Notes under the pieces: generated by a model
Databases searched by the model: none
What the model saw: the letters and a program-made list of their open reading frames with translations, nothing else
What the model was told of the DNA's origin: nothing
Shown: piece after piece, positions 23,680 to 63,654 of the stretch
Layout: each line of letters opens with the position of its first letter
Position numbering within the stretch: position 1 is the first letter of the stretch
Made by a program: the position numbers and the translations under genes
From: an uncultured Spirochaetaceae bacterium
GTDB lineage: Bacteria; Spirochaetota; Spirochaetia; SZUA-6; Fen-1364
DNA length: 64,000 nt
Reading direction: 5' to 3'
Assembly: GCA_964437385.1 (NCBI GenBank)
Contig: CAYTGX010000007.1
Location: forward strand, 103 to 64,102

Positions 23680-25558
23680 GCCGCCCCGCGCCGGTCCCCC
23701 GGGGGGAAACGAGATCCTGCGCCTCTCGGACATTTCCCTCGACTACGGCCAGGTCGTGGCGCTGAAGGACGTGAACCTTGCCCTCTACCCCTCAATGATC
23801 CACGCCCTGGTCGGAGAGCACGGCGCGGGCAAGTCCTCCCTCGGCATGGTCATCAGCGGCAGCCTGCGGCCCAGGACGGGGACGATACAGTTCGCCGGCC
23901 GGCGGCTCGACTCGCTCAGCATCCCCGTGGCGCATCGCCTGGGCATCGAGATGGTCTACCAGCAGGTACAGCTCAATGACTATTACTCCGTCGCGGAGAA
24001 CATCTTCTTCCTGGCCAAGGAGACGACCCGGCACGGACTGCTCAACCAGAGAGTCGTCGCCGCGAAGGCCCGGTCATTCCTGGACCTCCACGACTTCAGC
24101 CTGAACCCGGCCGCCATGGTCAGGAACCTCAACCTGCCCGATCGTGTGCTCATCTCGATCCTGGCCGCACTGCAGAAGAGGCCGAAGCTCCTGATCCTGG
24201 ACGAAGCCCTCGAAAAGCTCTCCTCCATCAACCTGCCCAAGGTGGTCCGCGTCCTTGACGCAATGAGATCGGACGGCATGTCCATCCTCTTCATCACGCA
24301 CCGTATCGAGGACGTCTACGACTTCGCGGACCGGGTGAGCATCGTGAAGAACGGCGAGATCCTGGTGACCGACGAGGTCGGCCATATCGACAAGATGAAC
24401 CTGCTGCGGTTGACCTACACGCAGGTGTACTCCCTGGAGGACTCCGGCAACCGCAAGCGCGAGTTCAACCAGTACCTCAAGTACTACGAGGCGGTGCTCC
24501 AGAAGCTGCCCGTCAACCTCATCGTCGTGGACGCCGAAGAGCGGGTAAAAATCGTCAACGAGCTGTGCAAGGAATACTTCCACATCGAAGGCGTGATGTC
24601 CTCCCATCGCCCCCTTGCAGCACTCCTCGGGGAAGAGAACGGTGAGGTCCTGGCCCTCATCCGCGAGGCGCTCCGCTCCGACGAGGGCGGCGAGTTCTAC
24701 CAGGTGCCCCTGACGATCGGCGGGGTGGAGACGATCAGCAACGTGAGGACCCTCCCGATCTTCGACGAAGGCCAGCGGATCGGCACCATCATCATCATCG
24801 AGGACATCTCCGAGTTCGACAGGCTGCAGAAGCAGGTCATCCTGTCCGAAAAGCTCGCGTCGGTCGGGCTCCTGGCCGCCGGGGTGGCGCACGAGATCAA
24901 CAACCCTCTGGAGATCGTCTACAACTACCTGAAGTACATCAAGCTGTCCTTCGATGACGCGAAGCTGCACGGCATGGTCGACGAGCTCCACGAGGAGATC
25001 ACCTACATTGCCGGCATCGTCCGCAACCTCCTCTCCCTCTCCGGTACGGCTGAGACGGGGCGGGAGGAGACGGACCTGAACGAGATGATCGGGAGCATCA
25101 TCGGGCTTCTTCGGCACAGCGCCCATGACAAGGAGATCTCGATCTCATTCCTGTCGAGCGAAAAGAAGCTCCTGCTCAAGGTCAACCGCAACGAGATAAA
25201 GCAGGTGCTTCTCAACCTGGTGAAGAACAGCTTCGAGGCCATGCCCGGCGGGGGCGACATCACGATCGGGACTTCCCTTGCCGCGGACGAAAAGGGGCGA
25301 CCCTGCGCGACGATCGAGTTCACCGATACGGGCCCGGGCATCCAGGGCGCGAACCTCAACAACGTGTTCATCCCGTTCTATTCGACCCGCAAGGGCAAAG
25401 GGGACAACGTCGGGCTGGGGCTCTCCATCTGCTATGGAATCATCAAGCGGCACGACGGGTTCATGCGCGTCAAAAACATCGAGCACTCGGGATGCCAGTT
25501 TACGATCACGCTCCCCCTGACCCCGGACGATTCACTCGGCGGCGCGGGGACCTGGTAG
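23663..25558 (+). CDS. soluble sensor histidine kinase with an N-terminal ABC-ATPase-like domain (NBD-PAS-HisKA-HATPase_c)
   Basis: N-terminus: GEHGAGKSS (Walker A), YQQ (Q-loop), LLILDEA (Walker B), FITHR (H-loop); the signature position reads NLNLPDRV. C-terminus: AHEINNPLE (H-box), LVKNSFEAM, DTGPGI, GLGLSI. Overlaps the regulator gene by 17 nt. Confidence 0.85.
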   Translation: MASTPEPPRAGPPGGNEILRLSDISLDYGQVVALKDVNLALYPSMIHALVGEHGAGKSSLGMVISGSLRPRTGTIQFAGRRLDSLSIPVAHRLGIEMVYQQVQLNDYYSVAENIFFLAKETTRHGLLNQRVVAAKARSFLDLHDFSLNPAAMVRNLNLPDRVLISILAALQKRPKLLILDEALEKLSSINLPKVVRVLDAMRSDGMSILFITHRIEDVYDFADRVSIVKNGEILVTDEVGHIDKMNLLRLTYTQVYSLEDSGNRKREFNQYLKYYEAVLQKLPVNLIVVDAEERVKIVNELCKEYFHIEGVMSSHRPLAALLGEENGEVLALIREALRSDEGGEFYQVPLTIGGVETISNVRTLPIFDEGQRIGTIIIIEDISEFDRLQKQVILSEKLASVGLLAAGVAHEINNPLEIVYNYLKYIKLSFDDAKLHGMVDELHEEITYIAGIVRNLLSLSGTAETGREETDLNEMIGSIIGLLRHSAHDKEISISFLSSEKKLLLKVNRNEIKQVLLNLVKNSFEAMPGGGDITIGTSLAADEKGRPCATIEFTDTGPGIQGANLNNVFIPFYSTRKGKGDNVGLGLSICYGIIKRHDGFMRVKNIEHSGCQFTITLPLTPDDSLGGAGTW

Positions 25559-50579: not shown

Positions 50580-51782
50580 CTACTTCGGAGGCCTGAACAG
50601 CCCCAGCGTCTCATGCGCAGTCGGAAATACCGCGGCGAGCATGGCCGGGTCCTTGATTCCCCAGAACTCCTCCGCCACGGTGCGATACAGCGTGCGGAAG
50701 TCCATCGTGTATTTCATGTCTCCCTGGTCAAGGTCTGCAGGGGACAGGGATGGCTGGGCTCCGTAGAATCCGCCCTTCACCCGTCCGCCGAGGATGAAGA
50801 CGGGTGCGGCGGTCCCGTGATCCGTGCCGTTGCTGGCGTTCTCTTCCACGCGCCGGCCGAACTCGGAGTAGGTCACTATCGCCACTCTGTCCCAGAGACC
50901 CGCCTGGACAAGGTTGCCACGGAACGCCGCCACGGCTCCGGCCAGCTCGCCCAGGAGCCGTTCCTGGACAGGCTTTTCCCCGCTGTGCAGGTCGAACCCG
51001 CGCAGGGTGAGCTTGACCACCGGAACGAGCAAACCCGCGGCAAGGAGCTGGAAGCTCGTTTTCATCTGCCGGCCGAGCCCGGTGTCGGGGAACGGGACCG
51101 CAGGCTCCTTGATCGACGGCTTGATGTGTGCCAGAACCGACGCGGCGGCCAGGATGTCCTGCTGAACCGAGCCGATGTAGCTCAAGTGTGCCGAGTCATC
51201 CGCTGACTCATCAGCCATCTGGGCCGCGTCCCGCAGAAATGCGTCCACGTTGTCCAGGGAGATGTTGTGCATGCCCGGTCCTTTGAGGGGTCCTGCCTGG
51301 GTTTCCCCCAGGATCAACGAATCAGCGAAGATACCGGCGGGACGGGTGGCCGGGGTCAGAACACGTGCAAGCCAGCCTGTGCTCAGCACCTCATGGGAAG
51401 AGGAGGCGGTCTCCCAGATATCGGTGGACCGGAAGTGAGACCGGTTCGGGTCGGGATAGCCGACGCCGAGCGCAATCGCGAAGTCTCCCGCCTTCCACGC
51501 GGTCATGAGGGGCGCAAGGGCGGGATGGAGCGCAAGGGTTCCGCTTACTCTGATAAGGTCGGACAATGACGGAGCAACGGTCGTTCGCACTGCGGCGTAC
51601 GCAGGATCGGTGAACGGGATCACCGTATCCAGGCCGTCGTTGCCGCCGGCGAGCTGAATCAGGACAAGGGTGTTCACGGGAGCCAGGGCGGCATCAGGCT
51701 CCGCGGCCAGTTGCTGCGGCGCCCGGAGCATGGCGACGAGCGCGAAAAGAAGCGGGAGGGCGGATCGGGTTCTCATCGTCAA
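50580..51782 (-). CDS. DUF1501 domain-containing protein (sulfatase-like fold, secreted)
   Basis: Signal peptide MTMRTRSALPLLFALVAMLRAP, then LAGGNDGLDTVIP, NRSHFRSTDIWETA and SEFGRRVEENASNGTDHGTAAP. DUF1501 pattern. Confidence 0.85.
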   Translation of the reverse strand: MTMRTRSALPLLFALVAMLRAPQQLAAEPDAALAPVNTLVLIQLAGGNDGLDTVIPFTDPAYAAVRTTVAPSLSDLIRVSGTLALHPALAPLMTAWKAGDFAIALGVGYPDPNRSHFRSTDIWETASSSHEVLSTGWLARVLTPATRPAGIFADSLILGETQAGPLKGPGMHNISLDNVDAFLRDAAQMADESADDSAHLSYIGSVQQDILAAASVLAHIKPSIKEPAVPFPDTGLGRQMKTSFQLLAAGLLVPVVKLTLRGFDLHSGEKPVQERLLGELAGAVAAFRGNLVQAGLWDRVAIVTYSEFGRRVEENASNGTDHGTAAPVFILGGRVKGGFYGAQPSLSPADLDQGDMKYTMDFRTLYRTVAEEFWGIKDPAMLAAVFPTAHETLGLFRPPK

Positions 51783-51785
51783 TTC

Positions 51786-53024
51786 CTATTCGAGGTTGGC
51801 TGCTGCCATCTGGGATTGCCTGCGGAAGTAGTTCGTAAGATCGGCAATGTCCCTGCGCCGTTCAAGGAGTGTGGATGCGTCGATCCAGTCCTGCCCCCAG
51901 GGCCACCCCTTCACGCTGATGGGGTTGAACAGGTCCTGACCGAGCCGGGAGAGCTGGTAGGAAAGCCGTTTCGGGTCGTAGCCGGAAATCCCCCATGTGC
52001 GGATGAAGCCGACCAGCAGGTCCACAGGGGATTTGATCAGCGCGCTTCGATTCTCCGGCGCCCAGAAGGCATCGCTCTCGAAGATCTGACGGAGAAGGGG
52101 CGTGAGCTGATACCCGGAGGCGCGGAAGGAGGCGGCCCACCCCTGGACCAGCGCCGGGTCGGGCTGCGGAGAGATGAAATACCGCCACAGCTTTTCTATG
52201 AGAAAGACGGCGGGGCGAGCCTGCTGGAGGATGATGTCCACGATGTCATCTCCGTTGAAATTTCCCGTCTTGCCGAGAAAGGTCTTTTCGCCGTCGTCGT
52301 GACGCCGCGGCTCGAATCTCGTTGTCCCCGCGGACCTGTCCACGGTGAGGCCCGTGAAGGCGCGCGCCGCCTCTTTCACGTCCTGCTCGCTGTAGTTGCC
52401 TTCCCCCATGGTGAAGAGCTCGAGAAGCTCGCGGGCGTAGTTCTCGTTCGGCTTTCCTTTCACATTGGCTTCGTTGTCCAGGTAGAGCACCATGGCGGGA
52501 TCCCGGGAGACGGCGTGCAGGAGCGTGCCGAAGCTCCCGGTTCCCAGCCGCCGAAGGAGAAGGTCCTGCTGGAGGAGCAGCTCGGGAGAGTTGGTTTTCT
52601 CCAGGCTGGAGGTGAAATGGTTGTGCCAGAACAGGACCATTTTCTCGGTGAGCGGGCTCGTGGACGTGACGAGACCGCCGATGAACCAGGCGCGCAGCCC
52701 CTGCCTGCGGCTCTCCAGTGCCTGGTCAAAGGCCTTCTTTGCTTCCGGGTCCGGCGGATGGGTCTTGTCCCCGGGGGGCCGGGGGAAGGGAGGAACGCTC
52801 CATGCCGGCGGGGTGTCCGCGGGGCTTGTCCGCAGTCCGCTGATCATGAACTCAACCGCCTCCGTTCGGGAAAGCGGGGCCAGCTCGGCAATGGCGCGCG
52901 GCGGCGCTCCAAAACCGGTGCGATCGAGCAGGTGAACGGCATCATCGTAGTCCAGGGCAAAAGCAGCAGTGGGGACAAAGAGCAGGCACGCAAGCGCGAA
53001 GACAGGGAAAAGGCGAGGCAGCAT
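51786..53024 (-). CDS. DUF1800 domain-containing protein
   Basis: LLDRTGFG, FWHNHFTS, MVLYLDN and NENYARELLELFTMG...YSEQDVKEAARAFTG. DUF1800 pattern, paired as usual with DUF1501. Confidence 0.85.
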   Translation of the reverse strand: MLPRLFPVFALACLLFVPTAAFALDYDDAVHLLDRTGFGAPPRAIAELAPLSRTEAVEFMISGLRTSPADTPPAWSVPPFPRPPGDKTHPPDPEAKKAFDQALESRRQGLRAWFIGGLVTSTSPLTEKMVLFWHNHFTSSLEKTNSPELLLQQDLLLRRLGTGSFGTLLHAVSRDPAMVLYLDNEANVKGKPNENYARELLELFTMGEGNYSEQDVKEAARAFTGLTVDRSAGTTRFEPRRHDDGEKTFLGKTGNFNGDDIVDIILQQARPAVFLIEKLWRYFISPQPDPALVQGWAASFRASGYQLTPLLRQIFESDAFWAPENRSALIKSPVDLLVGFIRTWGISGYDPKRLSYQLSRLGQDLFNPISVKGWPWGQDWIDASTLLERRRDIADLTNYFRRQSQMAAANLE

Positions 53025-53141
53025 GGGTCCTCCGACTGCAAAGATACTGAAAAGGCGGCGCGGGCGTCCTCCGCGTCCGGCGTCTCGTCCTTCTGGCGCC
53101 CTGCCCAGCGCTCCGCTATACTATGACAAAAGGGGTTTTGC

Positions 53142-55742
53142 ATGGAAAAATTGAAGGTCTCCAACGGCATCTACTGGGTCGAGGTGCCGGAAGCGGATCT
53201 GCGAATCCTCTGCGGGTGTCCGGCAGACAGCGTCAAACACCTGATGAAGCGCGGTCTGATCACGCAGAGGCAGAAGGCCGGGGTCAGCTATGAGACGGGA
53301 CCGAACGCCATCCTCCTCTGCGACTCGCCCATCCAGAAGGGCTGCTTCACGAATCTCTCCGAGTTCCCCGTCCTCCAGATGCTCTACCGGCAGGGCATGA
53401 TCATACCCGGACATCCGAACAATACAGGCAGAAAGCCGATGCTCATTGGCCTGGAGGACCAGGTCCGCTCGCAGGCCCAGTACATCTTTCGGGGCAACTA
53501 CGGCCTGGCGTCGGAAGAAGAGCTCACCGCATGCGGTGTACCGGAGGAGACCGCGCACGAGATTATGCGGATCAAGCGCTGGTTCGCATTCGGCAGGATC
53601 CGGGAAACCGAAGAGCTCTTGTCCATGAAGATCGTGGACAAGGACGCCATCGAGCTTGCTCCCGGCGTCTTTGTGCACAGGAAAGGAATAAACCGCTGGG
53701 AGTTCCTGGCAGACGGGGAGTCCGTGGAAGTGGACCTCAACCTGGCAGACGGGGAGGAGTACCAGGCGCCGTTCGATCTCGGCTCCCACACCCTGCACCG
53801 CGAGTACTTCTCCGTGATTCACATCGGAGAGGGAGACGGGTGGGACCCGGAAAAGCCCTGCATGGGGAGCCTCCTCTGCTTCCAGGGCCGCCTGTACCTG
53901 ATAGACGCGGGTCCGAACATCCTCCACACGCTGAAGGCACTGGGCATCGGCGTGAATGAGATCGAGGGGATCTTCCACACCCACTGCCATGACGATCACT
54001 TTGCAGGGCTCACCTCCCTGGTGCGCTCGGACAGGCGGCTGCGCTACTTTGCCGCCCCCTGCGTGCGGGCAAGCGTGGAGAAGAAACTGGCCGCGCTCAT
54101 GGGAATCGATCAGCGCCGATTCGCGCGCCTGTTCGACGTGCATGACCTCGTGCCGGGAGAATGGAACTCGGTCGAGGGCCTGGAGGTGCGCCCCGTGTTC
54201 GCCCCTCACCCTGTGGAGAACACCGTGCTCTTCTTCCGCGCGCAGGATGAAAAGGGGGTGAAGACCTACACGCATCTTGCAGACCTGACCTCCCTGGACG
54301 TCCTGGAGCAGATGGTGACGAGTGATCCGCGCAAGGACGGGATATCCCCCGCAACGCGGGACCGGTTCAAGAAGGAGATGCTGGAACCCGTGGACTTGAA
54401 GAAGGTGGATGCCGGGGGAGGCCGCATCCACGGAAAGCCGGAGGACTTCTCCGGCGATTCCTCTCGAAAGATCATCATGAGCCATTCCGCGGTACCGCTC
54501 ACGGAGGCGCAGAAGGAAATCGGCTCCAGTGCGGCATTCGGGCAGAGCGATGTCCTGATCCCCGTGCAGCACCAGACCTATATCCTGCGCTCCGCCCACC
54601 GCTATCTCAAATCGTACTTTCCCGAGGTTTCCTCCCATGAACTGGAGATGCTGATCAACTGCGGCATTGCTGCATTCAACGCCGGCTCCATCATGATCAG
54701 AAAGGGCGAGCGCAACACCGACATATTCCTGATCCTGAGCGGAACCGCGGAGGTGATAGACCGGGAGGCAGGCTTCCACAGCCGGCAGGCTGCCGGGGCG
54801 CTTGCCGGAGAGCTCTCCGCGCTGTCACACGAGCCGTCCCACCGGACCTTCCGCGCGGAGAGCGATCTGGCCGCCCTGCGCATACCCTGCGAAGCCTACA
54901 GGCTTTTCATCCGCAGAAACGGCATCGAGGAGGCGGTGCTCAAGATCAGGGAGAACCGCCAGCTTCTCTTCGCCACACGGCTGTTCGGCGACATGGCCTC
55001 CTTCACCGCGCAGCGGGAGATTGCGAGAGTGATGGAAAAGCGGCAGCTTGCAAAAGGAGAGACTGCCGTCCATGGTTCAGAGCTGTGCCTGTACCTCGTG
55101 GCGGACGGGGAGATCTCGCTCCAGTCGGATGAAACTCCCATCGAGGTCATCTCCGGCGGTGACTACTGGGGAGAGCTGTCCGTGGTGGAGGGAATCCCGG
55201 CAGTCTGCCAGGCGCTGGCGCTCCGGGATTCCGTGTACTATGCCATTCCCGCCGAAGCGCTGAAGGAGTGCCCCAGCGTTTTTCTGAAGCTCCTCGAGGT
55301 CTTTGACCGGCGCCTGCAGATCCTCCGCACGAAATTCGAGTTCGAGTGGCAGACATTCTACACCGTCGGGCTGTCGGAGATCGACGACGATCACAGGAAG
55401 ATTTTCGCCCTGGCAAATGACCTGTCCGCGCACCCCGCGGAGGGAGCGGTGGCCCGCCGCGAACAGATGGCGGCATTGCTCGAGCTGGTGCGCGCGCATT
55501 TCAAGAAGGAAGAATCACTGCTGGAGAGCCGTGCGTATCCGCGCCTGCCGGCGCAGAAGGAGGACCACCAGGCGCTCCTGTCAGAGCTCGCGGAAGCGGC
55601 GAAGACAGGAGAAACGGGGGATGCCCTGCTCAAGGACTGGCTTATCCGCCATACCTTGATCGAGGACCGCTTGTACAAGGACTTTCTGGCCGCCCCGACG
55701 GGGGCCGTCCCGCCGGCGGGCAAGAAAGACAGGAGGCGCTGA
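53142..55742 (+). CDS. multidomain signalling protein: unknown N-domain + MBL-fold hydrolase + 2x cyclic-nucleotide-binding + hemerythrin-like domain
   Basis: HTHCHDDH (the HxHxDH metallo-beta-lactamase motif). CNB-1: FLILSGTAEVID...GELSAL...HRTFRAES. CNB-2: LYLVADGEISLQ...GELSVVEG. C-terminus: IDDDHRKIF...HFKKEE...WLIRHTLIEDRLY (bacteriohemerythrin motifs). Confidence 0.8.
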   Translation: MEKLKVSNGIYWVEVPEADLRILCGCPADSVKHLMKRGLITQRQKAGVSYETGPNAILLCDSPIQKGCFTNLSEFPVLQMLYRQGMIIPGHPNNTGRKPMLIGLEDQVRSQAQYIFRGNYGLASEEELTACGVPEETAHEIMRIKRWFAFGRIRETEELLSMKIVDKDAIELAPGVFVHRKGINRWEFLADGESVEVDLNLADGEEYQAPFDLGSHTLHREYFSVIHIGEGDGWDPEKPCMGSLLCFQGRLYLIDAGPNILHTLKALGIGVNEIEGIFHTHCHDDHFAGLTSLVRSDRRLRYFAAPCVRASVEKKLAALMGIDQRRFARLFDVHDLVPGEWNSVEGLEVRPVFAPHPVENTVLFFRAQDEKGVKTYTHLADLTSLDVLEQMVTSDPRKDGISPATRDRFKKEMLEPVDLKKVDAGGGRIHGKPEDFSGDSSRKIIMSHSAVPLTEAQKEIGSSAAFGQSDVLIPVQHQTYILRSAHRYLKSYFPEVSSHELEMLINCGIAAFNAGSIMIRKGERNTDIFLILSGTAEVIDREAGFHSRQAAGALAGELSALSHEPSHRTFRAESDLAALRIPCEAYRLFIRRNGIEEAVLKIRENRQLLFATRLFGDMASFTAQREIARVMEKRQLAKGETAVHGSELCLYLVADGEISLQSDETPIEVISGGDYWGELSVVEGIPAVCQALALRDSVYYAIPAEALKECPSVFLKLLEVFDRRLQILRTKFEFEWQTFYTVGLSEIDDDHRKIFALANDLSAHPAEGAVARREQMAALLELVRAHFKKEESLLESRAYPRLPAQKEDHQALLSELAEAAKTGETGDALLKDWLIRHTLIEDRLYKDFLAAPTGAVPPAGKKDRRR

Positions 55743-56458
55743 TGGGCGCCTTCCAGAAAGCATACTTCGATCTCGTCTACAATCCCCTCTATGACGCGAC
55801 AACCGCGAGGTTGAGCCGCTACAAAACCCTTCAGCAGAAGTGCCTCCAGGCGCTGGATCTGGGGGAGGCCCGCAGCCTCCTGTGCGTCGGTCTCGGGACG
55901 GGCAATGAGCTGACGGCCGCCCTGCAGGCTGCCCCGCGGATCAGGATATCGGGAATCGACCTGTCACCTTCGGCCCTGGCGTCCAGCCGGAGAAAACTGC
56001 GCCGGGCGGGCAGAACGGCGGACCTGCAGATCATGGACGCAGCCGTCATCCGCTACCCGGACGGCAGTTTCGATCGCGCGCTGTGCGTGCACGTGCTGGA
56101 CTTCGTGGAGGACCCGTGGCCGGCGGTTCAGGAGATCGTGCGCGTCCTGGAACCGGGCGGCCGATTCGTGGTGACGTTTCCTTCGCGGCTGGAAGGGACC
56201 GCCCTCGGTGTTGCCCTTGCGCGGGACGAGGTCCGCACTTCCCTGCGGTCCGGGCGTCATCCGCTGGCCGTGGTAGGAGACCTCCTGTCCAAATTCGCCA
56301 TCGGGCTCGCATACGTGCCCCTGCTCGCGCGCACCGGGCATCGCACATTTTCCGAGCAGCAGGTACGCAGGCTCTTCGAGAGGCTGCCGGTGCGCGGACT
56401 TGCCATTGAGGAAGAACTGGCATACCAGGATCTGATAGTGACGGGAGAACGGGTATGA
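55742..56458 (+). CDS. class I SAM-dependent methyltransferase
   Basis: Motif I LLCVGLGTGNE and post-I ISGIDLS, then VLEPGGRFVV. The ATG overlaps the upstream TGA (TGATG). Confidence 0.8.
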   Translation: MGAFQKAYFDLVYNPLYDATTARLSRYKTLQQKCLQALDLGEARSLLCVGLGTGNELTAALQAAPRIRISGIDLSPSALASSRRKLRRAGRTADLQIMDAAVIRYPDGSFDRALCVHVLDFVEDPWPAVQEIVRVLEPGGRFVVTFPSRLEGTALGVALARDEVRTSLRSGRHPLAVVGDLLSKFAIGLAYVPLLARTGHRTFSEQQVRRLFERLPVRGLAIEEELAYQDLIVTGERV

Positions 56459-56490
56459 CCGCTGGTGGTCCATGAACGGGGGGACGCGAC

Positions 56491-58098
56491 ATGCTGCCCG
56501 AAGACGCCTATTTCAAAAACCTTGATCGGGATGAGTTGTGGAAGCGCTACTGCGGGTTCCTCGACCTGGGGATAAATGAGTTCCTGCAGATCCAGCGCGC
56601 GCTGCTTACCGAAGAGCTGGCCCTTGTCTCGGACAGCACGCTCGGACGGAAGATCCTCGGACCCCGGCCTCCGCGGACCATCGAGGAGTTCCGCGAATCG
56701 GTTCCCTTCACGAGTTACAGCGACTACGAGCCGTGCTTGAGTGAGAAGCGGGAGGACACGCTTGCCGTGAAACCCGCGGTCTGGTGTCATTCATCCGGCC
56801 GCAGCGGAAAGTTCAAGTGGATCCCCCACAGCGAGCCGATCATGGAGAAAGCCGCGCGCAACTCCGTGGGAATCTTCATCCTGTCCGCCGCGTCCCGCCG
56901 CGGGGAGGTTGCGGTAGCGCCCGGCGTCCGTATCCTCACGGGGATTCCCCTCGCGCCCTACACATCGGGCACCATGTTCGAGAACTTGCGGAAACGGTTC
57001 ACCTTTCAGCCTCTCCCGCCCCCGGATCTGGTCAGGTCATTGCCGTTTCCCGAACAGGTCAGCCGCGCTTTCGAGATGGCGCTCCGGGACGGGTTCGATT
57101 TTGCCGGGGCCATTGGCAGCGTGATGGTGCGCATGGGGGAACAGATGGCAGGCCATGCCGCGAGGACGTCGAAGCTGTCCCCGTCCACGTTCCATCCCAA
57201 GGTGCTCTTCAGATTGCTCCGCGGTCTGCTCAAGAGCTGGACCCAGAACCGGCCCGTCTTTCCCCGGGACTTGTGGAGCCCCCGCGGAATGATCATCAGC
57301 GGCGTCGACGCGAGCATTTATCGCGACGACATCGAGAAGTACTGGGGTGTCACACCTTTCGACATGTACGCGAGCACCGAGACGATGTTCATGGCAATGC
57401 AGAGCTGGACCAAGGCACACATGACGTTCCTGCCTGATTCGGTCTTCCTGGAGTTTGTCCCGCACAGGGGCGGAGAAGAAGAGGCGCCGGGGCACGAAAG
57501 GACCCTGTTGCTGGACCAGCTCGAAGAGGGCGGCCTCTATGAGATCATCATCACGCAGTTCCACGGAATGCCTCTCCTGCGCTACCGCATCGGGGATGTG
57601 ATCAGGGTGGTGAGCATGGGAGACGAGGAAGCAGGGATCACGCTCCCGCAGATCGAGGTCCGCCGGAAAGTCGGAGAGGCAATCAACCTGGGAGGACTGT
57701 GCAACCTGGACGAGCGGGCGCTGTGGGGCGCTCTGGCGGCCACGGGGCTTCGCTATACCGAATGGACGGCTTTCAAGGAGTACGATCACCATCAGACCTT
57801 TCTTCGGCTGGTCATCGAGCTGAAAGAGCCATCTGCCGCTGCAGAGGTCAGCCGACGCATGCACGAGCAGCTCAAGAAGATCGACGCGGACTATGGGGAC
57901 GTCGAGGGGTACCTGGGCGTCAACCCGATCCGCACGACCGTCATCTGCGGCGGGACCTTCAGCCGCTATGCCGAGGCGAGGATTCGCGAAGGGGCCGCGC
58001 TCTCCCACCTGAAGCCCGCCCATGTGAATCCGCTGCCCGAGATGGTGAAGGTGCTGATCCAGGGCTCGGTGGTTGATGAGGAGAAGCTGCAGCAATGA
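56491..58098 (+). CDS. GH3-family (auxin-responsive-promoter/JAR1-like) adenylate-forming enzyme
   Basis: ...TIEEFRESVPFTSYSDYEPCL...VWCHSSGRSGKFKWIPHS parallels the GH3 pattern F...VP..TYEDL.P.I...F..SSGT..G..K.IP. 535 aa, with a central YASTE block. Confidence 0.75.
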   Translation: MLPEDAYFKNLDRDELWKRYCGFLDLGINEFLQIQRALLTEELALVSDSTLGRKILGPRPPRTIEEFRESVPFTSYSDYEPCLSEKREDTLAVKPAVWCHSSGRSGKFKWIPHSEPIMEKAARNSVGIFILSAASRRGEVAVAPGVRILTGIPLAPYTSGTMFENLRKRFTFQPLPPPDLVRSLPFPEQVSRAFEMALRDGFDFAGAIGSVMVRMGEQMAGHAARTSKLSPSTFHPKVLFRLLRGLLKSWTQNRPVFPRDLWSPRGMIISGVDASIYRDDIEKYWGVTPFDMYASTETMFMAMQSWTKAHMTFLPDSVFLEFVPHRGGEEEAPGHERTLLLDQLEEGGLYEIIITQFHGMPLLRYRIGDVIRVVSMGDEEAGITLPQIEVRRKVGEAINLGGLCNLDERALWGALAATGLRYTEWTAFKEYDHHQTFLRLVIELKEPSAAAEVSRRMHEQLKKIDADYGDVEGYLGVNPIRTTVICGGTFSRYAEARIREGAALSHLKPAHVNPLPEMVKVLIQGSVVDEEKLQQ

Positions 58099-60908
58099 CC
58101 AGCGTCGGTTTCGTCCTCAGTCCATTGATTGCCGCGGCAATGACCCTCATTCTCGGCATCCTTGTCTTCCCCGCGGTCTACCGGGACAGACGCCGCCGGG
58201 TCTTCCTTCTTGTCCTGTTCAGCGTAGAGCTCTGGGCAGTCTTCACCTTTGCAATGCGCTTCAGCCGGGTCGAGACGGCGGCAATGATCTGGGACCGCGT
58301 GATCTCCGTCTGCCTCCTCTTCTTCTTCGTGGCCTTCTTCCACTTCTGCCACCTCTACATCGGCAGCAAGAGCCGCTGGCCGATATATGTCCTGTACGCG
58401 GCCACGGTTGTCGCGGCGGGAATCGCGCTGTTCACCGACCTCATGGTCAAGGGCGTCACGCGGTTCCAGGACGGCTACGCCCCCCAGGTGGGCCCCGCAG
58501 CGTACGCCCTGCTGGGGCCCGTGCAGATACTCCTCATCGCAAACGTGATCCGCCTGCTGCGCGCGAGCCGCGGTGAAGCCTCGGTTGTCAACAGCAGGCG
58601 CCTGCTGGTGCTCGCCATTGCGGGACTGCTCCCGTTCCTCGGAAGCGCCGCGGACGCCTTCACGGATCTTCCACCCCTGGGCATCTGGGCCAATCTCGCC
58701 TTCTGCGCGATCTGCTCCATCGTCGTCCTGCACTATCGCCTGTTCGACATGCGTGCGCTTGCCCGCACGGGCCTTGTCCGTCTCCTCATCGGCTCGATGA
58801 TCGCCGCTCCCTACATCGCCGCCATCCTCGTTGCCAACGCGCTGCTGCGGGACAGCAAGAGCCTGCTCTGGATCTATGTGGTCTCCATTGCCGTCTATGC
58901 GCTCGTCATGTGGCCGGCCTACGAATGGGCGCGGCGAAGCCTCGACCGGCTTTTCAACAGCGAGAAGTATGACCACCTGCAGGAGATGCGGGACCTTGCC
59001 CGCGGCGCGGACGCCCTCAGCGGATCCCACGAAACCTCCAACAAGCTGACTGCCCTCATGCAGCGGGCGCTGAACGCCACGTCCGTTTCGCTTCTGCAGC
59101 CCCTTTCGGACGGCCAGGGGATGTGTCGTGTTGCGAGCAATGGTTCGCCCTGCAGCGCAGAGGGCGCGATCCTTGGCGCGGCGAGCCCCCTCGTGGCCTG
59201 GTTCCACAGGCACAAAGCCACGCTCTCCATCAGGACCCTGACCGTAGAGCCATTGCTGCAGAACATCCCCCGGGCGGAAAAGGCGGCTCTGGACGATCTT
59301 CACACCACGCTGCTGGCGCCGCTCCTGACCGCGCACGGCTCCCTGACGGGCATCCTCGTGCTCGGCCCGAAGGCCAGCCGCCGGCAGTACAGTCCGGACG
59401 ACATCCAGCTCCTGGAGAACCTCGGCAGCGAGGCGGCCATGGCGCTGGAGAACGCCGGGCTCTACCGGGATGCGGTGCGGGCGCGGGAGACCCTTGAAGC
59501 GTGGCTGAACAATCTGCCGGACGTGGTCGCAATAGTCGACCGGAACAACGTCATCCGGTTCCTGAACAGGGAAGGCGCGGACCGTCTGGGCGCCCGGCCG
59601 GGCCAGCGCTCTTTTCTGCTCTCGGTCCCCCAGGAGGAGAACGGCGTTCCCCGGCGTTTCGCGGAAACGATCCGGGGGAGAGAGTACGAGATCGCCTCCG
59701 CGCCGCTCGTGGAGCCGGAAGGGCAGCTCTCCTCGGTGTTCGTGATGCGCGACATCACGGAGCGAAGACAGCAGCAGGCGGAGAGGGAGCAGCTTGAGGC
59801 CCGCGCGCGGCTGGCAAGCCACCTGGCGTCAATCGGGGAGATGGCATCGGGGATCGCACACGAGATCAACAACCCGCTGACTGCGGTGATCGGCTACAGC
59901 CAGCTCCTGAACGAGGAATCGCTGCCCGAAGAAGCGCGCGAGTCCGTGCGCCAGATCCGCCAGGGCGCCACCCGGGTTGCGGGTATTGTGCAGAGGCTGC
60001 TGACGTTTGCCCGACAGCGAAAACCGCAGCGCGTGGCAATGGACATGAACGAGGTCATCCGCTCCACCCTTGCGCTGCGCGAATATGCCATGCGGACGGG
60101 TCATATCTTTGTCACCACGCGGCTGGACCCGTCGCTTCCTCTCACCATAGCGGACGGCCAGCAGATGCAGCAGGTGGTGCTCAACCTGGTGGTCAATGCC
60201 GAGTGGGCCATGAGCATCTCCCATGGGAGGGGAGTGCTTCGAATCGTGAGCGAAACGCAGGGAGAGAACCTTCATGTCATCGTCCAGGACGATGGTCCGG
60301 GGGTTCCCCGGGAGATCCAGGACCGCATCTTCGACCCTTTCTTCACCACCCGGGAGATCGGGCAGGGCACGGGGCTGGGACTCAGCATCTGCCACGGGAT
60401 CGTGAGCGAGCACGGCGGCAGGATCTGGGTGGTGAGCGACGGGGCGCAGGGGAGCGAGTTTCACCTGCTCATTCCCATCGTGGTCCCCGACTCCCCGCCT
60501 GAACAGGCGGCCGGCGTGCGGCGGGAGCCCGCACGGCCGCACACGCGCATGCTCGTCGTGGACGACGAGCAGTCCATCCGCGAGCTGCTGAAGGCGATTC
60601 TCGAGCCCATGGGTCACAAAGTCGACGTTGCCGCTGACGGCCGCTCCGCGATCGAGCGCGTCACCACGAATCGCTACGGCGTCATCCTGCTCGATGTCCG
60701 CATGCCCGACATGAGCGGGCTGGAGGTTTTCCAGCAGTTGAAGAAGATCGCGGGCTCGATCGCCTCCCGGGTGGTGTTCATGACCGGTGACATGATGGCT
60801 GACGAGACACGCGCCCTGCTGGAGCAGACGGGAGCGCCCGCGCTGGCCAAGCCCTTTGAGTCGAAGGCGCTCATGGCGGCCCTGGAAAAGATTCTGACAG
60901 CGCGCTGA
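58095..60908 (+). CDS. hybrid sensor histidine kinase (7TM N-domain, GAF, PAS, HisKA, HATPase_c, REC)
   Basis: Seven hydrophobic segments at the N-terminus, a GAF-like block (GILVLGPKASRRQYSPDDIQLLENLG), H-box AHEINNPLTAVIGYSQLL, DDGPGV, GLGLSI, and a C-terminal REC domain (MLVVDDEQSIREL...ILLDVRMPDMSG). ATGA overlap with the GH3 gene. Confidence 0.9.
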   Translation: MTSVGFVLSPLIAAAMTLILGILVFPAVYRDRRRRVFLLVLFSVELWAVFTFAMRFSRVETAAMIWDRVISVCLLFFFVAFFHFCHLYIGSKSRWPIYVLYAATVVAAGIALFTDLMVKGVTRFQDGYAPQVGPAAYALLGPVQILLIANVIRLLRASRGEASVVNSRRLLVLAIAGLLPFLGSAADAFTDLPPLGIWANLAFCAICSIVVLHYRLFDMRALARTGLVRLLIGSMIAAPYIAAILVANALLRDSKSLLWIYVVSIAVYALVMWPAYEWARRSLDRLFNSEKYDHLQEMRDLARGADALSGSHETSNKLTALMQRALNATSVSLLQPLSDGQGMCRVASNGSPCSAEGAILGAASPLVAWFHRHKATLSIRTLTVEPLLQNIPRAEKAALDDLHTTLLAPLLTAHGSLTGILVLGPKASRRQYSPDDIQLLENLGSEAAMALENAGLYRDAVRARETLEAWLNNLPDVVAIVDRNNVIRFLNREGADRLGARPGQRSFLLSVPQEENGVPRRFAETIRGREYEIASAPLVEPEGQLSSVFVMRDITERRQQQAEREQLEARARLASHLASIGEMASGIAHEINNPLTAVIGYSQLLNEESLPEEARESVRQIRQGATRVAGIVQRLLTFARQRKPQRVAMDMNEVIRSTLALREYAMRTGHIFVTTRLDPSLPLTIADGQQMQQVVLNLVVNAEWAMSISHGRGVLRIVSETQGENLHVIVQDDGPGVPREIQDRIFDPFFTTREIGQGTGLGLSICHGIVSEHGGRIWVVSDGAQGSEFHLLIPIVVPDSPPEQAAGVRREPARPHTRMLVVDDEQSIRELLKAILEPMGHKVDVAADGRSAIERVTTNRYGVILLDVRMPDMSGLEVFQQLKKIAGSIASRVVFMTGDMMADETRALLEQTGAPALAKPFESKALMAALEKILTAR

Positions 60909-61012: not shown

Positions 61013-61324
61013 ATGCCGGGCAGTGCGGTCGAGAAAACCTTTGACGCCCTGGGAAATCCAGTCAGAAGAAAGATCCTGCGCATTCTCAATGCCCAGCCGC
61101 ACGCGGTCGGTGAGATCGCCTCCGTACTGCCCGTCAGCCGCCCCGCTGTTTCCAAGCACCTGCGCATCCTGGAAAAAGCCGATCTCGTGTCCCACGAAAG
61201 GCAGGGAAGCCGCAACGTATTCACCCTGAACAGGAAGGGCCTGCGCTCGGCACAGGCATACCTGGAGGATTTCTGGGAGGGGGCGCTGGCTCGATTCAAA
61301 ATGGCGGCGGAGAACAGGAAATGA
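61013..61324 (+). CDS. ArsR/SmtB-family transcriptional regulator
   Basis: FDALGNPVRRKILRILNAQPHAVGEIASVLPVSRPAVSKHLRILEKADLV is a winged HTH of the ArsR family. Confidence 0.9.
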   Translation: MPGSAVEKTFDALGNPVRRKILRILNAQPHAVGEIASVLPVSRPAVSKHLRILEKADLVSHERQGSRNVFTLNRKGLRSAQAYLEDFWEGALARFKMAAENRK

Positions 61325-61770
61325 ATGAACCTGTCGTGAAGAGTGTGCGTGTTGAATGCCCGATTCACGACGCGTTCGTGACGTTCACCGCACGCATCGA
61401 TCTCTGGTGGCCCATGGCCCATCGCAGGTTTCCAGACTCCGTCGTGGTCATGGAGCCGTGGACGGGCGGCGGATTCTTCGAAAAGGCCCAGGACGGGCAG
61501 GAAGCGCGGCTGGGCAATGTGGTCCGCTGCGAACCTCCTCACGCCCTGGCCTACACCTGGTACCCGGGCGCGATCGAAAAGCCCACGCTCGTCCAGGTCA
61601 GCTTTGTGCAGGAGCCGGGCGCAGTCCTGGTCACCGTGACGCATGCCGTGGGAGAGAGCGGCCTCGGAGATGAGTGGCCCACGCGCGCGCGGCGCTTCGC
61701 CAGGAACTGGGACGTGGTCCTCCCCGCCTTTGCGGCACTTTTGAAATCGGAAGACTCGGTCTTGCCCTAA
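61321..61770 (+). CDS. SRPBCC-superfamily protein (AHSA1-like)
   Basis: 4-nt overlap with arsR. VRVECPIHDAFVTFTARIDLWWP...YTWYPG...VTVTH. This is the common ArsR-SRPBCC pairing. Confidence 0.8.
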   Translation: MNEPVVKSVRVECPIHDAFVTFTARIDLWWPMAHRRFPDSVVVMEPWTGGGFFEKAQDGQEARLGNVVRCEPPHALAYTWYPGAIEKPTLVQVSFVQEPGAVLVTVTHAVGESGLGDEWPTRARRFARNWDVVLPAFAALLKSEDSVLP

Positions 61771-61789
61771 TCTTTCAGGAGGTACACCG

Positions 61790-62194
61790 ATGGATGTTCC
61801 AGTCAACTATCTCGCAGTGGTCATTGTGGCCCTTGTGAACTATGCCATTGGCTCGATCTGGTACGGCGTCCTGTTCAGGAAGCCGTGGATGAAGCTTGCC
61901 GGCATGTCGGAGATGAAGGTCACAGCCGTCAGCGTTGTCGTGGCCCTGGTCGGCGCGCTCTTCACGAGCTACATCCTGGCCCACGCGGTCATATTCGCAA
62001 GCGCGTATCTCAAGACCAGCGGTGTGGGAGCGGGGCTGACAACGGGCTTTTTCAACTGGATCGGCTTCATTGCCCCTGTCACGATCGGTGTCGTGATCTA
62101 TGAGAAAAAGCCTGCCATGTACTGGGTCCTGAATAATGCCTACTGGCTCGTTTCCCTCCTTATAATGGGCGCGATTCTCTCCGTCTGGAGATAG
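61790..62194 (+). CDS. DUF1761 family membrane protein
   Basis: MDVPVNYLAVVIVALVNYAIGSIWYGVLFRKPWMKL is the typical DUF1761 N-terminus. Four TM segments. Confidence 0.7.
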   Translation: MDVPVNYLAVVIVALVNYAIGSIWYGVLFRKPWMKLAGMSEMKVTAVSVVVALVGALFTSYILAHAVIFASAYLKTSGVGAGLTTGFFNWIGFIAPVTIGVVIYEKKPAMYWVLNNAYWLVSLLIMGAILSVWR

Positions 62195-62205
62195 CCCGCC
62201 CCTTG

Positions 62206-62243
62206 ATCGCGGTCATGCTTCGGTGTGACCGCGATTTCTTTTA
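62206..62243 (+). terminator. rho-independent terminator
   Basis: atcgcggtca tgcttcggtg tgaccgcgat (10-bp perfect stem) followed by tttctttt. Confidence 0.75.
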
Positions 62244-62269
62244 GCGAATACAATTCGTATATTGTCGCT

Positions 62270-63232
62270 ATGCATCGTAGACTTAGGCTGCCTCTTCGCG
62301 TGGCCAGGCAGCCGGTAGACAACCAGGTCGGCCAGACACCGGTAGAAGGAATCGGCAATACTCCGCTGCTGCGCCTGGACAGGATCTCGCGAGATCTTCC
62401 CCAGCAGGTGCAGCTCCTTGCAAAGGCCGAGTGGATGAACCCCGGCGGGTCGGTAAAGGACCGGCCGGCGGCCGGCATGATCCTTGATGGGGAGGAAAGA
62501 GGCGCGCTCCGCCCCGGGTTGACGATCCTCGACGCAACGTCCGGAAACACCGGCATCGCCTACGCCATGATCGGCGCCTCCCGGGGGTATCGCGTGAAAC
62601 TCTGCGCCCCCGCGAACACGGAAGAGGGGATCCTTGCCACTCTTCGCGCGTACGGCGCAGAGCTGGTCCTCACGGACCCGGCCCAGGCGATGGACGGCGC
62701 CAGCCGCGAGGTGGCCCGCATCATGGCCTCGTCGCCGGAGAGCTACTTTTTCCCCGACCAGATGAATAACGATGCGAACTGGAAGGCCCACTACGAGGGC
62801 ACGGCAATGGAAATCTGGGAGCAGACCAGCGGGCAGGTGACGAACTTTGTCGCGGGGGTGGGCACAGGCGGCACCCTGGTGGGCACAGGCAGGAGACTGA
62901 GAGAGCTGAACGCGAACGTGCGGATTGCGTGCGTCCAACCGGCGTCCCCCCTGCACGGGCTGGAAGGGCTGCGCCACCTTCAGACGACCATTGTCCCGCG
63001 CATTTATGACCCCACGCTCGCGGATGAGACCGTGTACGTCGAGACAGAGATAGCGCAGGCCATGGTGGTGCGGCTGGCGCGTGAAGAAGGCATCTTTGTT
63101 GGAGTGTCGGCCGGGGCCGCGGTGGCAGCGGCGCTCTCCGTTGCAGGGCGCCTGGAGCGCGGCGTGGTCGTCACGGTGCTCCCCGAAGGCGGACGCAGGT
63201 TCATCCACGAGCGGTTCTGGGAGGAAGCATGA
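62270..63232 (+). CDS. cysM: cysteine synthase, CysM-like (PLP-dependent, sulfur-carrier-protein-dependent type)
   Basis: IGNTPLLRL, the PLP lysine motif GGSVKDRPA, and GVGTGGTLVG. I prefer the ATG at 62270 because the ORF-track start at 62225 lies inside the terminator stem. Confidence 0.85.
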   Translation: MHRRLRLPLRVARQPVDNQVGQTPVEGIGNTPLLRLDRISRDLPQQVQLLAKAEWMNPGGSVKDRPAAGMILDGEERGALRPGLTILDATSGNTGIAYAMIGASRGYRVKLCAPANTEEGILATLRAYGAELVLTDPAQAMDGASREVARIMASSPESYFFPDQMNNDANWKAHYEGTAMEIWEQTSGQVTNFVAGVGTGGTLVGTGRRLRELNANVRIACVQPASPLHGLEGLRHLQTTIVPRIYDPTLADETVYVETEIAQAMVVRLAREEGIFVGVSAGAAVAAALSVAGRLERGVVVTVLPEGGRRFIHERFWEEA

Positions 63233-63654
63233 AAGTGATTGTCCCGCCGGGGATTCTCGAGCGGATGCGCCGGCATGGTGAAGAGACCTACCCGCACGAA
63301 TGCTGCGGCTTCATGCTGGGAAGCGCGGAGGACGGAATGCAGCGGATCGTGGAGATCCGCAGCCAGGCCAACGAACGCACGGAGTCACGGGAGAATCGGT
63401 TCCTCATCACCCCGGACCAGTTCAAAGCCGCCGAGTCCGCGGCGCGCAAGGCAGGCCTGCAACTGGTGGGCATCTACCATTCCCATCCCGACAGCCCTGC
63501 CTGTCCCTCCGAGTACGACCGGGATCATGCGTGGCCGTGGTTCAGCTACATCATCGTGTCCGTGAAGTGCGGCAAGGCAGATGAAGCCAACGCATGGCAG
63601 CTCAAGGAAGACCGCTCGGGATTCGAAGCTCTGAAGCTTGAGAAAGGAGATTGA
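63229..63654 (+). CDS. JAMM/MPN+ metalloprotease (Mec+-like)
   Basis: HECCGFMLG (catalytic Glu region) and HSHPDSPACPSEYD, an exact HxHx7Sx2D JAMM motif. 4-nt overlap with cysM. Confidence 0.85.
   Translation: MKVIVPPGILERMRRHGEETYPHECCGFMLGSAEDGMQRIVEIRSQANERTESRENRFLITPDQFKAAESAARKAGLQLVGIYHSHPDSPACPSEYDRDHAWPWFSYIIVSVKCGKADEANAWQLKEDRSGFEALKLEKGD

Follow-up and report, generated by a model that had tools for sequence, protein, structure and literature searches.

In plants, enzymes of the GH3 family (structures 4epl, 5kod, 9fwd) activate jasmonate and inactivate auxin, and one of them, JAR1 (GH3.11), makes jasmonoyl-isoleucine, the true ligand of the COI1 receptor; plants also methylate the acids that their GH3 enzymes conjugate. 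In the literature searched, biochemical characterisation of a GH3 enzyme from bacteria was found for OlsH (2025) alone, which joins fatty acids to ornithine in Singulisphaera acidiphila and is encoded beside the PmtA-like N-methyltransferase OlsG (PMC12493201, PMC12971839). The present work concerns a GH3 gene that lies between a gene for an S-adenosylmethionine (SAM)-dependent methyltransferase and one for a membrane-bound sensor kinase, in a row of four closely spaced genes within a 64,000-nucleotide (nt) stretch of contig CAYTGX010000007.1 from an uncultured Spirochaetaceae bacterium (the window, below, is this whole stretch). Comparison with other genomes suggests that the last three genes of the row, rather than all four, belong to a conserved signalling cassette. 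The four genes are as follows.

53142-55742, forward strand: gene 1, protein with metallo-beta-lactamase (MBL), cyclic-nucleotide-binding (cNMP) and hemerythrin domains, 866 amino acids (aa) (open reading frame (ORF) list, Pfam)
55742-56458, forward strand: gene 2, predicted class I SAM-dependent methyltransferase (Methyltransf_11/UbiE-like), 238 aa
56491-58098, forward strand: gene 3, predicted adenylating enzyme of the GH3 family, of acyl acid amido synthetase type, 535 aa
58095-60908, forward strand: gene 4, 7TM-GAF hybrid sensor kinase

The OlsH-OlsG-OlsI system resembles the cassette in placing a bacterial GH3 gene beside one for a SAM methyltransferase with kinship to phospholipid N-methyltransferases, as well as in conserving the GH3 nucleotide-binding motifs; its acyl substrate is a fatty acid and its acceptor an amino acid. 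It differs in having an alpha/beta-hydrolase partner, OlsI, to which Pfam finds no counterpart in the window operon. Elsewhere an alpha/beta-hydrolase gene stands beside the cassette in one of six metagenomic contigs (P0016, directly 5' of the methyltransferase gene and on the same strand; the 45 species loci described below, denoted by L numbers, were not screened for hydrolases), and a faint Peptidase_S9 gene lies about 4 kb away on the opposite strand in L001-3. The cassette differs in turn from the OlsH operon in its 7TM-GAF partner, the term "histidine kinase" occurring 0 times in the text of PMC12493201, and the taxa are not the same (Planctomycetota and Bacteroidota for OlsH, Spirochaetota and Chloroflexota for the cassette). 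With plant GH3 enzymes the window protein shares fold and motifs, and the proposed logic would be alike in that conjugation creates the form that a receptor recognises. The window protein is, however, some 40-80 residues shorter than most plant GH3 proteins and 16-18% identical to them in structure-based Foldseek alignments; the plant receptor is unrelated to the cassette sensor, and the cassette methyltransferases are Methyltransf_11 or PEMT-like enzymes, not SABATH enzymes.

In Ralstonia solanacearum the SAM methyltransferase PhcB makes 3-hydroxy fatty acid methyl esters, which are sensed by a membrane kinase encoded in the same operon. PhcB-PhcS/PhcR is thus like the cassette in combining a methyltransferase and a membrane sensor kinase in one operon, and in both cases the signal (proposed, for the cassette) is lipophilic and methylated, but the Phc system has no adenylating or GH3 enzyme; we know of no relationship between PhcS and the HisKA_7TM-GAF sensors, and the two systems are set side by side by description only. 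In the CqsA-CqsS (Vibrio), LqsA-LqsS (Legionella) and RpfB/RpfF-RpfC-RpfG (Xanthomonas diffusible signal factor) systems a signal synthase gene adjoins one for a polytopic membrane hybrid kinase, whose lipophilic signal is bound inside the bilayer. The Rpf cluster also encodes RpfB, a fatty-acid-adenylating enzyme of the ANL superfamily, and an HD-GYP phosphodiesterase of cyclic di-GMP (c-di-GMP), which parallels the HD-GYP outputs of some cassette sensors. Unlike the cassette, these systems use acyl-CoA transferase chemistry dependent on pyridoxal phosphate, or crotonase chemistry, their sensors have other transmembrane families, and they contain neither GH3 nor GAF. Finally, N-acyl alanine methyl esters (NAMEs) from Roseovarius tolerans, for which no candidate synthase genes were found (PMC11580390), belong to a compound class that a GH3 enzyme and a carboxyl methyltransferase could make together; they offer chemical precedent only, and no Roseobacter genome is among the 80 best GH3 relatives.

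Set against these systems, the cassette resembles the gene pair of a signal synthase and its cognate membrane receptor, a likeness that is supported only indirectly, by the pairing of enzymes with the sensor's input domains across changing outputs. The reading preferred here, tentatively and with a probability of about 0.45, is that the sensor perceives a conjugate of acyl-amino-acid type, probably lipophilic, which is made by the GH3 enzyme either alone or together with the methyltransferase. In the full-text literature searched no description of a GH3-HisKA_7TM pairing was found, and HisKA_7TM is listed there as a sensor domain with no ligand named.

Gene order in related genomes

Eighty species-level genome loci were fetched and annotated by tblastn and iterative profile searches; adjacency counts start from GH3 homologues, not from sensors. 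The first 45 loci cover 29-81% GH3 identity, and 42 of them have enough downstream sequence to judge the sensor. A HisKA_7TM-type (7TM-GAF) sensor gene directly follows the GH3 gene in 40 of these 42; in L031 the sensor is found solely upstream of GH3. The 4-nt overlap between the GH3 and sensor genes of the window recurs in L013, L014, L016, L018, L019, L025, L027, L042, L047 and L093, and in dozens of species the methyltransferase, GH3 and sensor genes overlap by 4 nt or lie a few nucleotides apart. Among genomes, the nearest relatives are metagenome-assembled genomes (MAGs) of Spirochaetota; the carriers as a whole are labelled Spirochaetota, Dehalococcoidia, Anaerolineae/Chloroflexota, delta proteobacteria (MAGs) and Moorellales (a MAG), with one further MAG labelled Saccharibacteria, and include an isolate, Anaerolinea thermolimosa IMO-1 (L036). 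In the six metagenomic contigs (50-79% identity) the order methyltransferase, GH3, 7TM kinase is kept in all, the flanks are unrelated, and the MBL-cNMP-hemerythrin gene is present in the 79% relative only.

Because the same order recurs in dozens of species with unrelated flanking genes, the arrangement of methyltransferase, GH3 and sensor genes is judged not to be due to chance. It could still be synteny inherited with no functional link, given that many carriers fall in two phyla, Chloroflexota and Spirochaetota, whose internal relatedness inflates the co-occurrence counts. That explanation is disfavoured and highly improbable: the pairing is still seen where GH3 identity is as low as about 29-35%, it spans at least four phylum-level labels and occurs amid wholly different flanks, and the gene order itself varies (methyltransferase before or after GH3, sensor before and/or after it), with non-homologous replacement of the methyltransferase besides. 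The neighbourhood survey suggested in the initial annotation of this DNA, which had been made from the sequence alone, thus finds GH3, methyltransferase and 7TM kinase conserved together far beyond close relatives.

The pairing follows the 7TM-GAF input of the sensor while the output changes. According to Pfam, this input is joined to HisKA-HATPase-REC in the window and in other Spirochaetota, and elsewhere to HisKA-HATPase with PAS (L024), to HisKA_3-HATPase (L040) or to GGDEF and HD-GYP (L050, L054). In A. thermolimosa a 7TM-GAF-GAF-GGDEF gene is followed by the methyltransferase gene, the GH3 gene and then a 7TM-GAF-GAF-HD-GYP gene. Across loci the identities of the GH3 and 7TM proteins to those of the window are correlated (Spearman 0.79, n=34); with their divergence correlated in this way, the two appear to have travelled as a unit, consistent with long co-inheritance. 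It is mainly because the enzymes track the input domain that a product read by the sensor is favoured, since targets of the sensor would be expected to track its output or regulator. The earlier proposal of a signal provided by the enzymes and sensed by the 7TM kinase therefore gains real comparative support, but the four-gene unit and the SABATH methyltransferase that were part of it are not supported, as described below. The conserved unit is best viewed as a predicted signalling cassette of two to three genes, encoding GH3, usually a methyltransferase, and a nine-helix HisKA_7TM-GAF sensor. It combines an enzyme family and a receptor module that had not previously been linked, and the simple rule seen here, by which outputs are exchanged but enzyme and input module remain together, yields a concrete and testable ligand-receptor hypothesis.

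Architecture of the sensor

The sensor kinase encoded by gene 4 is divided as follows.

58095-58949, forward strand: membrane region, aa 1-285, about nine transmembrane helices (Pfam, hydropathy and low-confidence AlphaFold2 helices)
59028-59453, forward strand: GAF domain, aa 312-453 (Pfam GAF_3, GAF_2 and GAF; alignment)
59505-59774, forward strand: PAS-like linker, aa ~471-560 (PAS_4 at 27.2 bits, covering aa 471-503 only)
59835-60884, forward strand: transmitter and receiver of the hybrid kinase (HisKA aa 581-642, HATPase_c aa 687-795, REC aa 820-930)

HisKA_7TM (PF16927) matches aa 11-219 at 42.1 bits against a cut-off of 28.6, and HisKA, HATPase_c and REC (Response_reg) match at 60, 83 and 84 bits, respectively; the H-box (HEINNP, with His589) is intact. 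By hydropathy, the stretch from aa 6 to aa 275 contains about nine hydrophobic helices, and the loops that join them have at most 20 aa. In relatives analysed with Pfam the GAF domain is always 3' of the transmembrane region in this HisKA_7TM-GAF sensor family, and L024 has a full PAS domain. The 7TM-GAF-PAS hybrid kinase described in the initial annotation, like the MBL-cNMP-hemerythrin architecture of gene 1, is thus seen by Pfam, with the PAS domain partial. The kinase had also been said to lack a cognate regulator, which is correct for the window; several Dehalococcoidia relatives do carry receiver-domain (response-regulator-type) genes beside the cassette.

Two loops are the best conserved in the sensor alignment, GYAPxxGP (aa 127-134) and DxFxxLPP (aa 187-194). 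The positive-inside rule would place the N-terminus outside, the GAF domain inside and both conserved loops on the outer face of the membrane; because these two loops may lie there, recognition at the outer leaflet is weakly hinted at, as would suit a signal that is exported or stays in the membrane. A homologue search with aa 1-470 of the kinase returned 10 proteins. As a separate observation, in L095 (1007-7128) a beta-ketoacyl synthase gene lies 10 nt upstream of two tandem HisKA_7TM kinase genes with no GH3 gene; this is a second case of a fatty-acyl-type enzyme beside HisKA_7TM, seen at a single locus.

The GH3 enzyme and its subfamily

The product of gene 3 matches the N, M and C models of GH3 in Pfam (PF03321/PF23571/PF23572) at 35.8, 53.0 and 27.4 bits, with a cut-off of 23.6 for each, and has three nucleotide-binding motifs.

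56788-56817, forward strand: motif 1, HSSGRSGKFK, aa 100-109, P-loop of the SSGT-x-G-x-x-K type
57367-57381, forward strand: motif 2, YASTE, aa 293-297, Y-x-S/T-S/T-E type
57583-57597, forward strand: motif 3, YRIGD, aa 365-369, Y-R-x-G-D type

The three motifs are invariant across 16 aligned homologues (48-79% identity), in motif 1 at H100, S101, G103, G106 and K109, and YASTE and YRIGD line up with YASSE and YRVGD in grape GH3-1. When the PDB is searched by sequence, plant GH3 proteins alone are returned at meaningful E-values. The AlphaFold2 model is of moderate quality (pLDDT 69.7), and its best Foldseek matches are plant GH3.5, GH3.6 and GH3.8 (best E=3.5e-18, TM 0.64); the top 17 matches are all plant GH3 structures, and ligases of the PaaK type are the next best. 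Judged by sequence and model, gene 3 therefore appears to encode a genuine GH3-family adenylating enzyme: the identification made in the initial annotation is borne out by the three Pfam models and the modelled two-domain ANL/GH3 fold, and the ATP/AMP-binding motifs, whose lack was to have spoken against it, are all present.

Among the candidates scored, 362 relatives reach E ≤ 1e-3, and all 120 of those listed have at least 48% identity. An exhaustive search gave 149 GH3 clusters at E ≤ 1e-30, and because there are just 149 the window enzyme is taken to belong to a small and distinct subfamily. More distant GH3 genes (<30% identity) occur in Acetobacterium, Oscillospiraceae and Methanomassiliicoccales, often as tandem pairs, and have neither a sensor nor a methyltransferase neighbour in the loci fetched; they form a different subfamily. 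The tandem genes of Acetobacterium and other Eubacteriaceae in L056-L079, which encode about 570 aa each (e.g. L056 4888-6609 and 6606-8282) and are 24-26% identical to the window GH3, are a separate and apparently uncharacterised GH3 subfamily.

Within the subfamily of the window enzyme, the N-terminal segment MLPEDxYFxxLxxxELWxRYCGFLDL (aa 1-26, nt 56491-56568) is very strongly conserved. It falls outside the aligned region in the two plant GH3 alignments displayed and could be an interaction surface.

Methyltransferases of the cassette

The window methyltransferase matches Methyltransf_11 at 74.5 bits and, at E ≤ 0.001, also Methyltransf_25, _12, _31, _23 and Ubie_methyltran; at the same threshold Pfam gives no match to Methyltransf_7, the SABATH family. 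The solved structure nearest to it, with E=2.7e-16 over aa 15-174, is 8ys9, a phosphatidylethanolamine N-methyltransferase of bacterial origin. The plant-type (SABATH) carboxyl methyltransferase that had been suggested for this gene is thus not seen, and the protein is best classed as a generic class I Methyltransf_11 enzyme whose predicted site of methylation may be nitrogen or oxygen alike, N- and O-methylation both being left open by the nature of its best solved relative. For the methyltransferase no NCBIfam equivalog model reached its cut-off, PmtA being rejected (NF045882, 39.9 bits against 390). Membership of the DVU_1553/DVU_1556 system was also rejected (NF045666 and NF045667, 23.2 and 43.7 bits against 300 and 155).

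A class I methyltransferase gene adjoins GH3 in 25 of 38 assessable loci (between GH3 and sensor in L043 and L051), and a methyltransferase of either of two kinds is present in about 70% of loci. The second kind is an unrelated integral membrane protein of about 190 aa, similar to PEMT and ICMT, with an RHPG motif. As a stand-alone gene it is located directly 5' of GH3 in L040 and L044, where it was assigned with a profile built from PEMT-GH3 fusion proteins (these copies score 17.6 and 20.6 bits, below the Pfam PEMT cut-off of 25), and in L052 a PEMT-like domain is encoded in an ORF just 5' of the GH3 gene and overlapping it. In P0139, P0181 and P0183 the PEMT-like protein forms the N-terminal part of a fusion with GH3; for P0139 the Pfam PEMT model gives 31.7 bits, again with the cut-off of 25, and P0181 and P0183, which have no Pfam PEMT match, were assigned by the common RHPG motif. 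The P0181 fusion gene overlaps a gene for a 7TM hybrid kinase (7TM-HisKA-HATPase-REC). Because the methyltransferase undergoes non-homologous replacement and fusion to GH3, methylation probably belongs to the pathway, and because the alternative enzyme is an integral membrane protein, the substrate is probably lipophilic.

Methylation is nevertheless not obligatory, contrary to the initial scheme, since roughly a quarter of assessable loci have no methyltransferase of either kind. In these no recurring protein is found directly 5' of GH3; the neighbours there are secreted proteins with no assignment, a PNPOx-like protein, a FabI/FabG-like protein (of the short-chain dehydrogenase/enoyl-ACP-reductase family), an MFS transporter and a prepilin peptidase.

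The kinship of both methyltransferases with lipid-modifying enzymes raises the question whether the cassette serves membrane-lipid homeostasis, the GH3 enzyme with or without methyltransferase making a structural aminolipid, much as OlsH and OlsG yield (N-methylated) lyso-ornithine lipid, and the 7TM-GAF protein sensing the state of the bilayer, as parts of a shared envelope-adaptation response. The OlsH-OlsG precedent, with its GH3 gene beside a PmtA-like N-methyltransferase, the phosphatidylethanolamine N-methyltransferase that is the closest solved relative of the window enzyme, the PEMT-like membrane alternative and the almost wholly intramembrane sensor all fit this explanation. It is nonetheless unlikely: the window GH3 was rejected as an OlsH equivalog (NCBIfam NF052613, 21.9 bits against a cut-off of 620), the cassette has no constant partner corresponding to the O-acyltransferase OlsI, and the GH3 subfamily is small; moreover, a single sensor family with interchangeable outputs, and with opposed GGDEF and HD-GYP flanks, is more typical of a ligand-receptor pair.

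The enzymes might instead act on or with the sensor itself. GH3 could serve as a "trigger enzyme", the GAF domain reading its catalytic state, or carboxylates of the receptor could be amidated or methylated in an adaptation like that of chemoreceptors by CheR. Start/stop overlaps, which suggest stoichiometric co-production, and the correlated divergence of GH3 and the 7TM region are what such an arrangement would lead one to expect; the conserved GH3 aa 1-26 could provide the contact, and the methyltransferase of L036 weakly resembles protein carboxyl methyltransferases (PCMT, E=6.6e-05). Replacement of the methyltransferase in some loci by a lipid-type membrane enzyme, however, is easier to reconcile with a small lipophilic substrate than with a protein, and we know of no GH3-family enzyme that acts on a protein substrate, so that action on the receptor is distinctly unlikely.

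Proposed mechanism of signal synthesis and perception

In the preferred reading, that of a GH3-made conjugate perceived by the sensor, the GH3 enzyme would first adenylate a carboxylic acid, probably fatty or otherwise lipophilic, and couple it to an amine, for which an amino acid is the most likely candidate; that an amide is formed in this way is proposed on the basis of the family chemistry and the OlsH fatty acid-ornithine precedent. Where present, the methyltransferase would then methylate the head group, either by N-methylation as in PmtA and OlsG or by esterification of a free carboxylate, which would give a neutral, membrane-permeant product. In a third step the conjugate would partition into or cross the membrane and be recognised by the 7TM-GAF sensor, which would finally switch its own output: for the window, the phosphorelay of a hybrid histidine kinase; for Anaerolineae and others, synthesis (GGDEF) and/or breakdown (HD-GYP) of c-di-GMP. 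The MBL hydrolase encoded by gene 1, added in the lineage of the window, may degrade the signal or a cyclic nucleotide. We infer that the enzyme product and the sensor ligand are one and the same, as well as the chemical class of the product and the site at which it is recognised. That the product is probably lipophilic is hinted at by the kinship with phosphatidylethanolamine N-methyltransferase, the membrane-bound alternative methyltransferase, a sensor with no sizeable extramembrane domain and the OlsH precedent.

Several observations weigh against this mechanism. Adjacency of the genes does not distinguish a product that is the ligand from a sensor and enzymes that share a pathway in another manner. 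The two do not always occur together: L037 (a KSB1 MAG) has GH3 with no sensor, two more remote HisKA_7TM sensors that were examined occur with no GH3, one of them following a phosphofructokinase gene, and in L091 (6001-9710) the gene for the PEMT-GH3 fusion P0139 (744 aa) overlaps by 4 nt with the next gene, which encodes a B12-binding radical SAM protein in place of a 7TM sensor and gives this GH3 subfamily a further setting. Methylation, lacking in about a quarter of loci, is not essential to recognition everywhere. The GH3 fold is compatible with CoA-ligase chemistry like that of PaaK, whose structures rank just behind the plant GH3 structures. On the side of the sensor, the AlphaFold2 model of aa 1-470 is too poor to show a binding site (pLDDT 60.5, pTM 0.40, from a 7-sequence alignment), and the cytoplasmic GAF domain could be the ligand site, which would point to an internal metabolite and not to an exported signal.

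A broader statement of the preferred reading, bolder and correspondingly doubtful, is that many anaerobic Chloroflexota (Dehalococcoidia, Anaerolineae) and Spirochaetota, with a few MAGs labelled as other phyla, may possess a previously unrecognised system in which a GH3-made and often methylated N-acyl amino acid signal acts at the membrane through a dedicated nine-helix HisKA_7TM-GAF receptor on a phosphorelay or on c-di-GMP turnover. To our knowledge cell-cell or autocrine signalling has been little studied in Dehalococcoidia, Anaerolineae and environmental Spirochaetota. If correct, the system would provide the first ligand class for the orphan HisKA_7TM domain and the first defined autoinducer-type system for these phyla, and conjugation of an acid to make a receptor ligand would be a strategy common to plants and bacteria. 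The GGDEF and HD-GYP outputs of Anaerolineae offer a possible assay read-out in c-di-GMP, and a cultured carrier exists in A. thermolimosa IMO-1.

Gene 1 and the extent of the conserved unit

Gene 1 encodes an MBL domain (Lactamase_B_2, 38.4 bits) whose metal motif, HCHDDH (aa 281-286, nt 53982-53999), is intact, together with two cNMP_binding domains (70.6 bits) and a C-terminal hemerythrin domain (38.4 bits). Its first 235 residues (53142-53846) have no Pfam, NCBIfam or PDB sequence match, and PDB sequence matches to the protein are limited to bacteriohemerythrin and the cNMP domains of PKG. The gene is present only in the window and in L001-3 and L012, relatives with 79-81% GH3 identity, and is absent already in L011 (80% GH3 identity) and in all other loci annotated; the full architecture, from the unmatched N-terminal domain to the hemerythrin domain, is likewise seen in the closest relatives only. 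Being confined to these, gene 1 is regarded as a lineage-specific addition that lies outside the conserved cassette.

This distribution bears on the initial scheme, in which all four genes would make, modify or degrade a plant-hormone-like acyl amino acid (of aromatic or jasmonate type) with the aid of a SABATH-like methyltransferase. Gene 1 is indeed coupled to the methyltransferase gene by TGATG, an RNA-derived contig spans that junction, and the organism occurs in metagenomes of rhizosphere and peat, environments that offer plant acids. The restriction of gene 1 to the closest relatives, the lack of a Methyltransf_7 match and the nature of most carriers, which are not plant associates but anaerobic Chloroflexota of sediment, groundwater and reactor origin, nevertheless make the four-gene scheme improbable.

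Operon structure, expression and neighbouring genes

The junctions and the upstream region of the operon are as follows.

53025-53141, no strand assigned: divergent intergenic region 5' of the operon, probable promoter region
55740-55744, forward strand: stop/start overlap TGATG of gene 1 and the methyltransferase gene, with AGGAGG 6 nt upstream (direct reading)
56459-56490, forward strand: 32-nt gap between the methyltransferase and GH3 genes, with a G-rich Shine-Dalgarno-like run (direct reading)
58095-58098, forward strand: start/stop overlap ATGA of the GH3 and kinase genes (direct reading)

All three junctions are exactly as first described, the TGA of gene 1 and the ATG of the methyltransferase gene sharing base 55742. 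The upstream neighbour is a DUF1800 gene on the minus strand (51786-53024, Pfam), and because it is divergent the operon most likely starts within 53025-53141. A single weak sigma-70-like match is found at 53123-53151, the promoter scan overall being at chance level; since promoter and terminator counts are both at the level of shuffled sequence, the orientation of the genes is the sole basis for the operon boundaries.

Pieces of all four genes are matched at 100% identity by wetland metatranscriptome contigs of 150-316 nt, and one RNA-derived contig of 237 nt (55545-55781) bridges the first junction. The other two junctions are unbridged among the metatranscriptome contigs listed, and carry-over of DNA is possible. 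Of the earlier claim that the four genes are co-translated, the junctions therefore stand, and the RNA contigs weakly show co-transcription and leave a single transcript unproven. DNA nearly identical to 53142-60908 is found in many rhizosphere, peat and permafrost metagenomes, and parts of the GH3 gene also occur in wetland and peat metatranscriptomes.

The DUF1800 gene forms part of a DUF1501-DUF1800 pair (50580-53024, minus strand) directly 5' of the operon and divergent from it. On the 3' side of the kinase gene, relatives carry PALP (CysM-like), JAB and ThiS-ThiF-rhodanese genes, a cluster of the sulfur-carrier-protein type (L001 14495-17321; window 61013-63654); in the window this cluster is separated from the kinase gene by an ArsR-type HTH gene (61013-61324) and an AHSA1/SRPBCC gene (61321-61770). 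Farther away, positions 23663-25558 of the window encode a 631-aa protein of unusual kinase architecture, in which an ABC-transporter ATPase domain is fused N-terminally to PAS-HisKA-HATPase_c; its gene overlaps the last part of a gene for a response regulator of the sigma-54 activator type (22357-23679).

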